From assembly GCA_016906335.1 (NCBI GenBank), contig JADEYG010000009.1, positions 1,302,001 through 1,366,000 of the forward strand: a stretch of DNA of 64,000 bases, written 5' to 3'. The translations under genes and the position numbers were made by a program. Every line of letters starts with the position of its first letter. Position 1 is the stretch's first letter. Positions 42,049 through 46,723 of the stretch are shown here, in pieces. This DNA is from Novakomyces olei. Taxonomy: Eukaryota. The notes below the pieces were generated by a model. The model worked only from the letters and a program-made list of their open reading frames with translations, was not told where the DNA came from and did not search any database.

Positions 42049-42951
42049 CTACTCGAGCTCGTCCACCGACTTTTTGAGTCGCTCAAGCATAAAAGTCTCA
42101 TAGTTACCATAAACTTTCAGTTTCTCCTTGCTTGCATCCGGAACCCGTTTGAATTCTTCGTCAAGCTCGAACCATTCTGAATTGTTGCAGACATCGTCAG
42201 CAAAGATAGCCCAAAACTCAGCCCATGAATTAGCCCAAACGACATGTTCCTCTTCGTCCCGTCCAGACGTAATGACCTGACCTTCTCGTCCCTTTGGCCC
42301 CGGCACGAAATCCAGGCTGATACTGTTCCCGCATCCATCGGCCGTAAGGGGAATCCATTTAGGATGAGCGTAAAAAGACCCAACAGCATCCGCTGGAAAA
42401 GATGTAAACTCCATCTCGCAATCGTATCCGCACTTTGAACCAGCTCCAAGAGACTCAAGAACCTCCGTCCAGCATGTGTGCTCGTCTTTTATGTGTTCCG
42501 TATCCAGTAACGAATGAGTGCTCAAGAAATCGTCCCCACTCCTATCCTGGCCATTGTGCACGGACAAGTACTCGCGTACATCCTGAGGCAGCTTGACACC
42601 CACTTTGCTCTCTACCTCGTCCAGCTCTTGCTCAGTAGCACCCGGGTTTAAAGAGAAATACGCCAAATCAATCTTCTTACTGTACTTGTCCTTGATCCGC
42701 TGCCACGAGTCCGCAACCGCTGGCGGATCTGGCCAGCTTCGTAGGGGATTGCGTTCAACGAAAAATAAACCCCAGCCTGGGTTCCGAGGAAGTTTTGCGC
42801 GCAGCTCTTTTTGTGCCGAAGACTTGGCCCCTCTTTCGGTTTTGTTTGCAGTAGATCCCTCATCCGATCCCAGAGGATTGCTGCTGCTTGGTGAATCGTT
42901 GTTAGAGTCACTCAACGACTGTCCCTCGGCCTGGCTTGCTTTGCCAGACAT
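42049..42951 (-). CDS. SMI1/KNR4 (SUKH) family protein, copy 1, 300 aa, intronless
   Basis: VADSWQRI, LNPGATEQELDEVESKVGVKLPQDVREYLSVHNGQ, YAHPKWIPLTADGCGN.ISLDFVPGPKG..GQVITSGRD, ANSWAEF resemble the Knr4/Smi1 core. Confidence 0.9.
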   Translation of the reverse strand: MSGKASQAEGQSLSDSNNDSPSSSNPLGSDEGSTANKTERGAKSSAQKELRAKLPRNPGWGLFFVERNPLRSWPDPPAVADSWQRIKDKYSKKIDLAYFSLNPGATEQELDEVESKVGVKLPQDVREYLSVHNGQDRSGDDFLSTHSLLDTEHIKDEHTCWTEVLESLGAGSKCGYDCEMEFTSFPADAVGSFYAHPKWIPLTADGCGNSISLDFVPGPKGREGQVITSGRDEEEHVVWANSWAEFWAIFADDVCNNSEWFELDEEFKRVPDASKEKLKVYGNYETFMLERLKKSVDELE

Positions 42952-43121
42952 TTTGGTAAAATGGCTCGTCTATATGATTAAACTGACCAATCCTCACCTT
43001 GAAGGGTCTATGACAAACACGCCATACTGTACAGCCAATTTATACAGCGGCTTGCTGCCTCGTTTTTCTCATACCGCCCACGCTCCTTGTACATGACGAG
43101 CATGATGCCATGCCATTTTCT

Positions 43122-43284
43122 CATATTATTGCTATTATTATTATTATTATTATTATTATTATTATTATTATTATTATTATTATTATTATTATTATTATTA
43201 TTATTATTATTATTATTATTATTATTATTATTATTATTATTATTATTATTATTATTATTATTATTATTATTATTATTATTATTA
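43122..43284. repeat. (TAT)n microsatellite upstream of KNR4-like copy 1
   Basis: Directly visible. Confidence 0.95.
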
Positions 43285-43526
43285 TGTTATCTCCAAGATA
43301 ACTTTTTCCCTTGTTTCCTAAATAGGTAAAGAGGACGCCTTGCCCACGTTAACAAGAAGAAGTCCTTTAAACAAAGAAAGTACCTTGTTCTTGGATTAAC
43401 TATAAATACAAGGCCACGTCCCATAGGTTCCGTAGAATTGTTAAATTGTTTTACTGAAAATCTACAGCTTCTAAACTATCTTTAGATTCATAGCAGAAAG
43501 CGCGATTGTTACAATCAACCACTAAC

Positions 43527-43737
43527 ATATTATTATTATTATTATTATTATTATTATTATTATTATTATTATTATTATTATTATTATTATTATTATTATT
43601 ATTATTATTATTATTATTATTATTATTATTATTATTATTATTATTATTATTATTATTATTATTATTATTATTATTATTATTATTATTATTATTATTATTA
43701 TTACTAATATTATTATTATATTCCTAATATTATTATT
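43527..43737. repeat. (TAT)n microsatellite at the unit 1/unit 2 junction
   Basis: Directly visible. Confidence 0.95.
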
Positions 43738-43974
43738 AAATCATCGATCATCGATGCTATATAGCGGAGCTCCGAAATACTCGTGTATTCATATAAAATT
43801 AGGGGTCCTGTTTGTTTCCCCGTATTTGCGCCATACAAGTGTAATGCAAAAGATAGTTCATTTCTATGAATCTGTAATGGCTATACACATATGAAATAAA
43901 GACAGCGAATAATGCGCATCCGGCCATCACCGATATTTTCAGAAGGCAGGTAATTAACTACTCGAGGAAACAAA

Positions 43975-44877
43975 CTACTCGAGCTCGCCCACCGACTTTT
44001 TGAGTCGCTCAAGCATAAAAGTCTCATATTCATCATAAACTTTTAGTTTCTCCTTGCTTGCATCCGGAACCCGTTCAGAATGTTCGTCAAGCTCGAACCA
44101 TTCTGAATTGTTGCAGACATCGTCAGCAAAGATAGCCCAAAACTCAGCCCATGAATTAGCCCAAACGGCATGTTCCTCTAAGTCCCGTCCAGACGTAATG
44201 ACCTGACCTTCTCGTCCCTTTGGCCCCGGCACGAAATCCAGGCTGATATTGTTCCCGCATCCATCGGCCGTAAGGGGAATCCATTTAGGATGAGCGTAAA
44301 AAGACCCAACAGCATCCGCTGGAAAAGATGTAAACTCCATCTCGCAATCGTATCCGCACTTTGAACCAGCTCCAAGAGACTCAAGAACCTCCGTCCAGCA
44401 TGTGTGCTCGTCTTTTATGTGTTCCGTATCCAGTAACGAATGAGTGCTCAAGAAATCGTCCCCACTCCTATCCTGGCCATTGTGCACGGACAAGTACTCG
44501 CGTACATCCTGAGGCAGCTTGACACCCACTTTGCTCTCTACCTCGTCCAGCTCTTGCTCAGTAGCACCCGGGTTTAAAGAGAAATACGCCAAATCAATCT
44601 TCTTACTGTACTTGTCCTTGATCCGCTGCCACGAGTCCGCAACCGCTGGCGGATCTGGCCAGCTTCGTAGGGGATTGCGTTCAACGAAAAATAAACGCCA
44701 GCCTGGGTTCCGAGGAAGTTTTGCGCGCAGCTCTTTTTGTGCCGAAGACTTGGCCCCTCTTTCGGTTTTGTTTGCAGTAGATCCCTCATCCGATCCCAGA
44801 GGATTGCTGCTGCTTGGTGAATCGTTGTTAGAGTCACTCAACGACTGTCCCTCGGCCTGGCTTGCTTTGCCAGACAT
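43975..44877 (-). CDS. SMI1/KNR4 (SUKH) family protein, copy 2 (chimera of copies 1 and 3)
   Basis: Same motifs as copy 1; intact 300-aa ORF. Confidence 0.9.
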   Translation of the reverse strand: MSGKASQAEGQSLSDSNNDSPSSSNPLGSDEGSTANKTERGAKSSAQKELRAKLPRNPGWRLFFVERNPLRSWPDPPAVADSWQRIKDKYSKKIDLAYFSLNPGATEQELDEVESKVGVKLPQDVREYLSVHNGQDRSGDDFLSTHSLLDTEHIKDEHTCWTEVLESLGAGSKCGYDCEMEFTSFPADAVGSFYAHPKWIPLTADGCGNNISLDFVPGPKGREGQVITSGRDLEEHAVWANSWAEFWAIFADDVCNNSEWFELDEHSERVPDASKEKLKVYDEYETFMLERLKKSVGELE

Positions 44878-45047
44878 TTTGGTAAAATGGCTCGTCTATA
44901 TGATTAAACTGACCAATCCTCACCTTGAAGGGTCTATGACAAACACGCCATACTGTACAGCCAATTTATACAGCGGCTTGCTGCCTCGTTTTTCTCATAC
45001 CGCCCACGCTCCTTGTACATGACGAGCATGATGCCATGCCATTTTCT

Positions 45048-45139
45048 CATATTATTGCTATTATTATTATTATTATTATTATTATTATTATTATTATTAT
45101 TATTATTATTATTATTATTATTATTATTATTATTATTAT
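45048..45139. repeat. (TAT)n microsatellite upstream of KNR4-like copy 2
   Basis: Directly visible; shorter than the equivalent tract in unit 1. Confidence 0.95.
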
Positions 45140-45380
45140 GTTATCTCCAAGATAACTTTTTCCCTTGTTTCCTAAATAGGTAAAGAGGACGCCTTGCCCA
45201 CGTTAACAAGAAGAAGTCCTTTAAACAAAGAAAGTACCTTGTTCTTGGATTAACTATAAATACAAGGCCACGTCCCATAGGTTCCGTAGAATTGTTAAAT
45301 TGTTTTACTGAAAATCTACAGCTTCTAAACTATCTTTAGATTCATAGCAGAAAGCGCGATTGTTACAATCAACCACTAAC

Positions 45381-45583
45381 ATATTATTATTATTATTATT
45401 ATTATTATTATTATTATTATTATTATTATATTATTATTATTATTATTATTATTATTATTATTATTATTATTATTATTATTATTATTATTATTATTATTAT
45501 TATTATTATTATTATTATTATTATTTTATTATTATTATTATTATTATTACTAATATTATTATTATATTCCTAATATTATTATT
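45381..45583. repeat. Interrupted (TAT)n microsatellite at the unit 2/unit 3 junction
   Basis: Directly visible. Confidence 0.95.
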
Positions 45584-45820
45584 AAATCATCGATCATCGA
45601 TGCTATATAGCGGAGCTCCGAAATACTCGTGTATTCATATAAAATTAGGGGTCCTGTTTGTTTCCCCGTATTTGCGCCATACAAGTGTAATGCAAAAGAT
45701 AGTTCATTTCTATGAATCTGTAATGGCTATACACATATGAAATAAAGACAGCGAATAATGCGCATCCGGCCATCACCGATATTTTCAGAAGGCAGGTAAT
45801 TAACTACTCGAGGAAACAAA

Positions 45821-46723
45821 CTACTCGAGCTCGCCCACCGACTTTTTGAGTCGCTCAAGCATAAAAGTCTCATATTCATCATAAACTTTTAGTTTCTCCT
45901 TGCTTGCATCCGGAACCCGTTCAGAATGTTCGTCAAGCTCGAACCATTCTGAATTGTTGCAGACATCGTCAGCAAAGATAGCCCAAAACTCAGCCCATGA
46001 ATTAGCCCAAACGGCATGTTCCTCTAAGTCCCGTCCCGACGTAATGACCTGACCTTCTCGTCCCTTTGGCCCCGGCACGAAATCCAGGCTGATATTGTTC
46101 CCGCAATAATCGGCCGTAAGGGGAATCCATTTAGGATGAGCGTAAAAAGACCCAACAGCATCCGCTGGAAAAGATGTAAACTCCATCTCGCAATCGTATC
46201 CGCACTTTGAACCAGCTCCAAAATCCCCAAGTGTCTCCATCCAGAGTGTGTGCTGGTCTTCTATGCCTTTTGTATCCAGTATCAAATAAGTGCTCAAGAA
46301 ATCGTCCCCACTCCTATCCTGGCCATTGTGCACGGACAAGTACTCGCGTACATCCTGAGGCAGCTTGACACCCACTTTGCTCTCTACCTCGTCCAGCTCT
46401 TGCTCAGTAGCACCCGGGTTTAAAGAGAAATACGCCAAATCAATCTTCTCACTGTACTTGTCCTTGATCCGCTGCCACGAGTCCGCAACCGCTGGCGGAT
46501 CTGGCCAGCTTCGTAGGGGATTGCGTTCAACGAAAAATAAACCCCAGCCTGGGCTCAGAGGAAGTTTTGCGCGCAGCTCTTTTTGTGCCGAAGACTTGGC
46601 CCCTCTTTCGGTTTTGTTTGCAGTAGATCCCTCATCCGATCCCAGAGGATTGCTGCTGCTTGGTGAATCGTTGTTAGAGTCACTCAACGACTGTCCCTCG
46701 GCCTGGCTTGCTTTGCCAGACAT
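45821..46723 (-). CDS. SMI1/KNR4 (SUKH) family protein, copy 3
   Basis: Same motifs as copy 1; intact 300-aa ORF with a divergent central patch. Confidence 0.9.
   Translation of the reverse strand: MSGKASQAEGQSLSDSNNDSPSSSNPLGSDEGSTANKTERGAKSSAQKELRAKLPLSPGWGLFFVERNPLRSWPDPPAVADSWQRIKDKYSEKIDLAYFSLNPGATEQELDEVESKVGVKLPQDVREYLSVHNGQDRSGDDFLSTYLILDTKGIEDQHTLWMETLGDFGAGSKCGYDCEMEFTSFPADAVGSFYAHPKWIPLTADYCGNNISLDFVPGPKGREGQVITSGRDLEEHAVWANSWAEFWAIFADDVCNNSEWFELDEHSERVPDASKEKLKVYDEYETFMLERLKKSVGELE

Follow-up and report, generated by a model that had tools for sequence, protein, structure and literature searches.

A window of 64,000 nucleotides from the genome of Novakomyces olei (assembly GCA_016906335.1, contig JADEYG010000009.1, positions 1,302,001 to 1,366,000 of the forward strand) contains three consecutive genes for compact proteins of the Knr4/Smi1 type, which are members of the SUKH-1 family. 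As judged from their sequences, these genes appear, on balance, to be a native and lineage-specific cluster of fast-evolving Knr4/Smi1-type adaptor genes, which was duplicated and in which the binding of partners would have changed between two sequence types, here named type A and type B. The middle gene is a chimera of the two outer genes, and the differences between the outer genes are concentrated on one predicted helix. All positions given below refer to the window.

Three intact Knr4-like genes in tandem

The three open reading frames (ORFs) are arranged head to tail and consist of exactly 300 codons each.

42049..42951, minus strand: copy 1 (type A), compact Knr4/SMI1-like gene of 300 amino acids (aa), ATG-to-stop ORF
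43975..44877, minus strand: copy 2, chimeric gene, 300 aa, ATG-to-stop ORF
45821..46723, minus strand: copy 3 (type B), 300 aa, predicted helix 151-167 re-surfaced, ATG-to-stop ORF

Three intact tandem ORFs of this length had been described in an initial annotation of the locus, and they were found again on the minus strand with the SMI1_KNR4 domain (PF09346) in each. The matches to this profile reached 61.5–71.2 bits at a cut-off of 25.4 (E = 1.5e-19 for copy 1, 3.7e-18 for copy 2 and 1.6e-16 for copy 3); the domain extends over residues 104–246, and positions 1–122 of the 125 profile positions are covered in each copy. The reading frames are uninterrupted, hold the whole domain and are predicted from the sequence to lack introns. 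None of them is disrupted by a stop or a frameshift, whereas indels of 7, 25 and 1 nucleotides (nt) are present in the noncoding flanks. At the protein level, copy 1 is 97% identical to copy 2 and 91% identical to copy 3. When copy 1 was compared with the 64-kb window by tblastn, E-values below 0.4 were obtained at only these three loci.

The genes are embedded in DNA repeat units of about 1.3–1.4 kb with offsets of 1926 and 1846 bp between the units. Each unit consists of about 140 bp of 3' flank, the coding sequence and about 260 bp of upstream sequence with an (ATT)n microsatellite at its end. Two copies of a spacer of about 640 bp are present, at 43196-43833 and at 45050-45679.

41907..43213, no strand assigned: repeat unit 1 (self-blastn, 98.1% to unit 2 and 95.1% to unit 3)
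43834..45139, no strand assigned: repeat unit 2 (self-blastn)
45680..47050, no strand assigned: repeat unit 3 (self-blastn)
43124..43285, no strand assigned: (ATT/TAT)n microsatellite upstream of copy 1 (Tandem Repeats Finder, TRF)
43528-43738, 45050-45139, 45382-45584 and 46891-47286, no strand assigned: similar (ATT/TAT)n arrays (TRF)
43038..43044, minus strand: TATAAAT, candidate TATA box of copy 1, 87-93 nt 5' of the ATG (sequence reading)

The unit counts of the microsatellites vary between the repeat units (51, 58, 27, 56 and 22+55+52). The motif TATAAAT, which is a possible TATA box, is located inside the repeated unit, and none of the variable columns of the three-unit alignment falls on it.

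Further repeat tracts are present in the same 8 kb (39829-40069, 41609-41701 and 47633-47736). Nearly pure (ATT/TAT/TTA)n tracts reach 80 and 132 units, and a (TTAT)23 array as well as a 14-mer repeated 7.4 times also occur. The microsatellites give rise to spurious poly-Ile/Leu/Tyr ORFs, for example at 39823-40653 and 46746-47342. Opposite the 5' half of each copy, an antisense stop-free frame of at least 169 aa is located on the plus strand (42587-43096, 44513-45022 and 46359-47342). A Pfam scan of these antisense frames gave no match, and they are probably a by-product of the composition of the sense strand.

Origin of the middle copy

Copy 2 is composed of two parts. In the three-unit alignment, the part that begins in the upstream region and extends as far as codon 206 shows a single difference to copy 1 and 35 differences to copy 3, whereas in the part from codon 210 to the end of the 3' flank 26 differences to copy 1 and a single one to copy 3 were counted (Fisher's exact test on the counts 1, 35 and 26, 1; p = 2e-15).

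44250..44259, minus strand: inferred crossover interval in copy 2, codons 206-210 (variable columns 964-966 and 977 of the unit alignment)
43196..43974, no strand assigned: 3' flank of copy 2 (43834-43974) plus spacer (43196-43833), duplicate of 45050-45820 below copy 3

The two versions of this segment have lengths of 779 and 771 nt and are separated by two substitutions and eight gap columns, the gaps being located inside the microsatellite. Because copy 2 is a mosaic and the spacer is present a second time, a two-copy array became a three-copy array by unequal crossing-over of the misaligned copies 1 and 3. The microsatellites, which flank every repeat unit, may favour such misalignment. 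G61R is the only private change of copy 2, and one synonymous change at codon 229 is the only private change of copy 3; as each of these copies has gained a single substitution since then, the crossover was a recent event. The idea of a tandem array that is dynamic in copy number was thus borne out by the structure of its middle member.

Family membership and protein architecture

An AlphaFold2 model was built from an alignment of 106 sequences and showed a mean predicted local distance difference test score (pLDDT) of 78. The predicted layout consists of a disordered, Ser/Asn-rich N-terminus (residues 1 to about 65), the SUKH-1 core (78–262) and a C-terminal helix (284–299). The core, approximately residues 78–262, is modelled with high confidence (pLDDT 85–98 per 10-residue block in 71–170 and 181–260). 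In the N-terminal residues 1–65, pLDDT is below 50 at residues 1–5, 19–39 and 57–65 and in the 40s to 50s elsewhere.

Among solved structures, the ordered core of yeast Knr4 (8aj2) was the best match by sequence (E 1.4e-20). Foldseek comparisons of the model likewise gave the lowest E-values for chains of yeast Knr4 (7e-17 to 1.5e-15; template modelling score, normalised to the target, 0.73–0.81), while FBXO3 was found with E 1e-7 and the bacterial structures BF1740, 2icg, Syd and YobK with E 1e-3 to 3e-2. The Foldseek probability was 1.00 for the Knr4 core, FBXO3, BF1740, 2icg and Syd and 0.99 for YobK. By profile and by the SUKH alpha/beta fold of the model, the copies belong to SUKH-1 (PF09346).

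Ahead of the core, the proteins possess an extension of 77 residues, which is largely disordered as in fungal-type proteins, and the motif before the core as well as the helix after it can be aligned with long fungal-type relatives. The core is followed by 38 residues in comparison to about 150–300 in most long fungal-type relatives, so that the statement of the initial annotation that there is almost no C-terminal tail was accurate. The internal loop comprises 15 residues in comparison to about 35–60 in most of these relatives. From the canonical Knr4 architecture with its three parts, the N-terminal region is therefore present, and the long loop and the long C-terminal tail are absent.

A phmmer search against 1.84 billion representatives yielded 2335 matches at E ≤ 0.001, two of them at E ≤ 1e-30, and the best matches were 40% identical. 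The top seven of the 2335 matches are proteins of 400–530 aa with the fungal Knr4 architecture; close behind these are compact proteins of 206–312 aa, two of which are named Gemmataceae and Planctomycetes. Few of the aligned sequences carry a name (P0272, Biscogniauxia, a Sordariomycete; P0274, 'SMI1'; P0009 and P0276, Planctomycetes), and for the others the label "fungal-type" was derived from the architecture and from reading the sequence, not from a taxon name. In the core, the window copies share on average 38% identical residues with 67 canonical fungal-type sequences (34–46%) and 33% with 92 other sequences, and the canonical sequences among themselves have a median identity of 56%.

The array has a guanine-plus-cytosine content (GC) of 0.50, a GC at third codon positions (GC3) of 0.53 and a correlation of relative synonymous codon usage (RSCU) of 0.46 (neighbours 0.35–0.67); all three values are within the ranges of the neighbouring genes. 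A pattern scan of a bacterial and archaeal genome collection with the single protein detected no relative, and a profile scan of the same collection yielded 187 confirmed relatives, of which the 80 that were retained are 28–38% identical.

Two proteins of 470–471 aa, P0001 and P0065, are closer relatives outside the canonical group, and their stretch before the core is very similar to that of the window proteins. The C-terminus of P0001 is extended by 270 residues, in which a weak, sub-threshold match to an NTF2-fold immunity family was obtained (E 0.0066), and this protein would fit a bacterial poly-immunity fusion.

Divergence of the two sequence types

Between copies 1 and 3, 40 of the 900 coding bases are changed, and the affected codons comprise 26 nonsynonymous and 3 synonymous ones. 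These differences are strongly clustered: 19 of the 40 are located within 69 nt, which was reached by none of 20,000 random placements. The differences between the copies accumulate on one predicted helix.

42448..42516 (copy 1), 44374-44442 (copy 2) and 46220-46288 (copy 3), minus strand: hypervariable patch, codons 146-168 (clustering test)

In codons 1–145 only three differences occur (proportion of differing nonsynonymous sites, pN, 0.009; of synonymous sites, pS, 0), and this 5' half of the gene is either homogenised or young. In codons 146–168, pN is 0.31 and pS is 0.14. The noncoding flanks show a divergence of 0.036 upstream and 0.071 downstream. Nonsynonymous differences in the patch (17 of 55 sites) are about seven times as frequent as differences in the pooled neutral proxy (22 of 500; Fisher p = 7.5e-9, post hoc); when the nonsynonymous rate (dN) was compared to the synonymous rate (dS) inside the patch, which has only 14 synonymous sites, p was 0.18.

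In the model, the hypervariable patch corresponds to the strand 146–148 and the helix 151–167. In this helix, 10 of the 17 residues differ between the types, and I154, H158, W161 and L165 are shared by all copies. Their spacing (i, i+4, i+7, i+11) places them on one face because of the helical periodicity, and by the same periodicity this face would be buried and the changed residues would be exposed. The differing positions belong to more variable columns of the family than the other positions of the core (entropy 3.05 versus 2.20 bits, p = 5e-4, 159 homologues), and the changes between A and B are therefore likely to spare the fold. A few of the changes nevertheless affect conserved residues that presumably belong to the surface. 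Type B has replaced E157, which is present in 67 of 67 canonical fungal-type sequences, E152 (61 of 67) and L148 (58 of 67); type A has replaced N210 (61 of 67).

A second dense cluster is located just 3' of the stop codon at 42009-42042 (versus 43935-43968 and 45781-45814), where copy 1 differs from copies 2 and 3 by 10 substitutions in 34 nt. Although noncoding, this patch reaches the density of the coding hot-spot; it may represent an element of the 3' untranslated region that has diverged, or an island that escaped conversion. Since a noncoding patch is also this dense, a mosaic history, in which homogenisation was incomplete or an unseen paralogue acted as a conversion donor, is probably involved in part.

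At codon 206 (42334-42336 in copy 1, 46106-46108 in copy 3), all three bases are changed (GGA to TAT, Gly to Tyr), and the 37 codons before and the three codons after it are identical. In the family, this position is aromatic in fungal-type sequences and Gly in many compact proteins. An isolated triple change of this kind would hardly be expected from point mutations that occurred independently.

Repeat-induced point mutation was considered as a source of the differences and rejected; the 40 differences consist of 24 transitions and 16 transversions of many change types, with no bias towards C-to-T or G-to-A.

Proposed history and function

The following course of events is proposed. An older duplication would have led to type A (copy 1) and type B (copy 3). 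Very recently, an A copy and a B copy then recombined out of register by unequal crossing-over, which formed the chimeric middle gene together with the duplicated spacer; this second event is shown by the mosaic. By homology, the core probably serves as a protein-binding platform as in yeast Knr4, which is described as a hub that binds Slt2 and calcineurin. The C-terminal tail of yeast Knr4 is reportedly not directly necessary for its function, and for this reason the tail-less form could still act as an adaptor. The differences between A and B would be found mostly on exposed faces of helix 151–167, where two near-universal acidic residues are replaced in type B. Because conserved acidic residues are changed, an altered partner binding is suggested for type B. 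The likeliest consequence would be a changed partner binding in the sense of a sub- or neofunctionalisation of the duplicated adaptor.

Several observations weigh against this interpretation. In a maximum-likelihood (ML) tree of 50 sequences (171 core columns, LG+C20), 23 canonical fungal-type sequences form one clade (support 99/97) with the window copies outside of it; the latter group weakly (84/46) with P0031 and P0060, two proteins of 222–227 aa whose nearest Atlas clusters are bacterial by their features. The HNGQ and RDEEEH-type motifs and the short loop resemble bacterial (Planctomycetes-type) SUKH-1 proteins. Furthermore, the whole-gene dN/dS of copy 1 versus copy 3 is 1.69 (Nei-Gojobori), which does not exceed 1 significantly (Fisher p = 0.2). 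Codons 206–300 evolve at the rate of the noncoding flanks (pN 0.063, pS 0.062), and much of the difference between A and B could therefore be neutral. The patch of codons 146–168 was picked after the data had been seen, and it could be an import by gene conversion from an unseen paralogue.

Regarding the placement, the stem branch of the window copies has a length of 1.11 substitutions per site. When the copies were constrained to group with the canonical sequences, the log likelihood (lnL) changed by only 0.27, and this sister position is not rejected (approximately unbiased test, p-AU, 0.465); nesting them in the P0272 subclade costs 13.6 lnL units and is a borderline case (p-AU 0.06). A tandem family of compact and atypical Knr4/SUKH-1 proteins, as it had been proposed in the initial annotation, agrees with the short proteins and with their long branch, which in the best tree lies apart from the canonical clade. 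The phylogenetic comparison with fungal Knr4 and bacterial-type sequences, which had been suggested as a check, gave a best tree with the copies outside the canonical clade, but it left the sister position acceptable. The claim that the array is diversifying was not supported, with a dN/dS of 1.7 (p = 0.2) and a 3' third that keeps pace with the noncoding flanks.

Alternative explanations

That the copies are redundant duplicates, which were amplified neutrally or for dosage, and that the differences between A and B are noise under relaxed constraint, is considered unlikely. Such drift would agree with a dN/dS indistinguishable from 1, with equal pN and pS in codons 206–300, with the loss of a different conserved residue in each type (E152 and E157 in B, N210 in A), with the position of the differences in the least constrained columns of the family and with the dense substitutions in noncoding DNA at 42009-42042; since the 3' third of the gene fits it, it keeps a place among the explanations. 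It does not account well for the sevenfold excess of nonsynonymous changes in the patch over the neutral proxy (post hoc), for the unchanged, presumably buried face of the helix or for the absence of stops and frameshifts from all copies while their flanks carry indels. The initial annotation had favoured a conflict locus, in which immunity- or decoy-like SUKH copies neutralise yeast killer toxins or bacterial polymorphic toxins delivered into fungi and the array diversifies in an arms race; this is improbable. Bacterial SUKH proteins are predicted immunity proteins which often occur as tandem divergent paralogues beside toxin genes, and the SUKH-1 fold and tandem arrays are typical of such loci (Zhang et al. 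2011). The recent change in copy number, the replacement of nearly the whole exposed surface of one predicted helix between the types, the point estimates of dN above dS and the long stem branch (1.1 substitutions per site) are consistent with a conflict. Nevertheless, a Pfam scan (E ≤ 0.001) of the 129 stop-to-stop ORFs of at least 100 aa in the 64 kb, a set which leaves out shorter or spliced genes as well as toxins that have no Pfam model, detected no toxin domain; housekeeping families were the only ones found, in agreement with the earlier remark that no cognate toxin ORF was visible. Only two sequence types, 91% identical, are present, and instead of divergent paralogues the array holds copies of 91–97% identity, one of them a chimera of the other two. 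The excess of dN over dS is not significant, the first 145 codons are almost identical (three differences), and the Ser/Asn-rich, presumably disordered N-terminus does not resemble a signal peptide. The closest fold is that of the signalling adaptor Knr4, and the survey of the superfamily describes for the ancient eukaryotic versions, the Knr4/FBXO3 lineage, a role other than toxin immunity and no lineage-specific expansions (Zhang et al. 2011). Apart from the fold, none of the defining features of polymorphic-toxin immunity was found. From the claim of a repurposing for conflict, the compact, dynamic and helix-clustered array stands, and a toxin domain in the scanned ORFs, divergent paralogues and significant selection were not found. 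The toxin-immunity idea is unsupported, and a native, fast-evolving and recently amplified cluster of Knr4-type adaptors is preferred; the idea keeps a small probability, since the copy number is dynamic, a surface helix was rewritten and the toxins are possibly encoded elsewhere or by other organisms. A eukaryotic re-creation of the SUKH strategy, in which a copy-number-variable array with a helix under diversifying selection supplies intracellular binders or decoys for incoming protein toxins or effectors, seems slightly more improbable still. In such a conflict, the incoming molecules could be killer toxins of yeasts or contact-dependent toxins of bacteria with access to fungal cells.

The domestication of a bacterial SUKH-1 gene, which was acquired horizontally and then duplicated, is highly improbable. 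It would explain the position of the copies in the best ML tree outside the fungal clade and near P0031 and P0060, as well as the Planctomycetes-like motifs and the short loop, and it has a precedent in the short SMI1/KNR4-like genes of Kluyveromyces lactis and Saccharomyces kluyveri, as reported by Rolland et al. (2009). On the other hand, a joint clade with canonical fungal Knr4 is not rejected, identities and phmmer scores favour the fungal-type over the bacterial-type sequences, Foldseek strongly favours yeast Knr4, and the N-terminal extension of 77 largely disordered residues is a fungal-type feature. Because GC, GC3 and RSCU look native, a recent transfer is argued against; with no compositional signal and a closest relative of 38% identity among the 187 confirmed bacterial loci, this possibility was dismissed. 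Finally, the middle copy might be an assembly artefact, in which reads from an array of really two copies were joined into a chimera; this is very unlikely to be the case. In its favour, copy 2 can be composed almost perfectly from its two neighbours, apart from one private substitution, and long microsatellites that are hard to assemble flank the units. Against an artefact are the private changes in copies 2 and 3 (G61R and the synonymous codon 229) and the different lengths of the spacer and upstream microsatellites (58 versus 56 and 51 versus 27 units), and an exact hybrid together with a duplicated spacer is what unequal crossing-over predicts. Moreover, such repeats are collapsed by assemblers more often than they are expanded.

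Comparison with known systems

The window proteins share the Pfam family and the core fold with Knr4/Smi1 of S. cerevisiae, GS-1 of N. crassa, Smi1 and Smi1B of C. albicans and FgKnr4 of F. graminearum. In both groups a disordered region precedes the core, and both the motif in front of the core and the helix that follows can be aligned. They differ in length (300 aa versus 400–650 aa) and in the absence of the long phospho-regulated loop and of the long disordered C-terminal tail of canonical Knr4. In the literature consulted, Knr4/Smi1 is regarded as a single-copy, fungus-specific hub and possible antifungal target and is treated as a 1:1 orthologue, whereas three tandem copies are present here; more than one homologue per genome has a reported precedent in C. 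albicans. A tandem array of compact fungal Knr4 genes was not found in the literature searched, which misses most subscription journals.

With bacterial SUKH-1 immunity proteins, the window proteins have the domain, the compactness, the short loop, some motifs and the tandem layout in common. They are distinguished by the eukaryotic housekeeping context, by near-identical copies, by the lack of a detected toxin domain in the 64 kb and by the similarity values (Foldseek E 1e-3 or worse versus 1e-16 for Knr4; best identity 38%). The gene KLLA0B05269g of K. lactis is also a short, stand-alone SMI1/KNR4-family gene of an ascomycete in a conserved syntenic housekeeping region (Rolland et al. 2009). 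Such yeast genes of bacterial origin code for 144 aa and are 42–53% identical to bacterial proteins and about 23–28% identical to yeast SMI1 (Rolland et al. 2009); the window proteins, in contrast, are more similar to fungal Knr4 than to any of the bacterial proteins that were found, and they are tandemly repeated. The SUKH domain of FBXO3/SKIP16, the substrate-recognition part of an SCF (Skp1–Cullin–F-box) ubiquitin ligase, belongs to the same fold lineage (Foldseek E 1e-7, phmmer E 1e-6), but the three window genes possess neither an F-box nor an ApaG-type domain.

On present evidence, the locus is a modest variant of a gene family and not a new system. It is a compact, tail-less, tandem variant of Knr4 just after a change in copy number, with one helix of the predicted binding surface rewritten. 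As a natural experiment, it might indicate which parts of Knr4 its function needs and in what way an adaptor that acts as a hub changes once its gene has been duplicated. If the conflict explanation were true, the logic of SUKH immunity would extend to eukaryotes.

Genomic neighbourhood and host

The array is surrounded by genes for enolase, a proteasome ATPase, ATIC, a Na/Ca exchanger, an amidase, the condensin subunit Cnd2, a 5'-nucleotidase and WD40 proteins, as well as Sec10, an F-box protein, EF-Ts, an INSIG-like protein, a cyclophilin, VOA1, eIF2-gamma, NF-X1 and a kinesin. These eukaryotic neighbours and the lack of a further copy of the array sequence in the window are in line with the single-copy housekeeping setting that had been assumed before. 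Searches of the window with Rfam at the gathering score and with a tRNA scan detected no RNA gene.

19612-21519 and 21569-22159: condensin Cnd2 (database search)
36476-37354, minus strand: F-box protein gene, about 5 kb from the array (Pfam: F-box only, without SUKH domain)

Cnd2 was used for the placement of the host. Its local identity in BLASTP is 32–45% (mostly 36–42%) among the 120 best listed proteins, and the named proteins among these 120 are all from Ascomycota of several classes and subphyla. In shared columns, Cnd2 is 41–44% identical to 12 named ascomycetes, which have a median identity of 52% among themselves. None of the window's own proteins was among the matches of the database searches made. 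The host can be read from these sequences as a deep-branching ascomycete that lacks close relatives among the proteins of the collections which were searched.

In F-box proteins such as FBXO3, a SUKH domain acts as the module that recognises the substrate. The nearness of the F-box gene to the array is probably due to chance.

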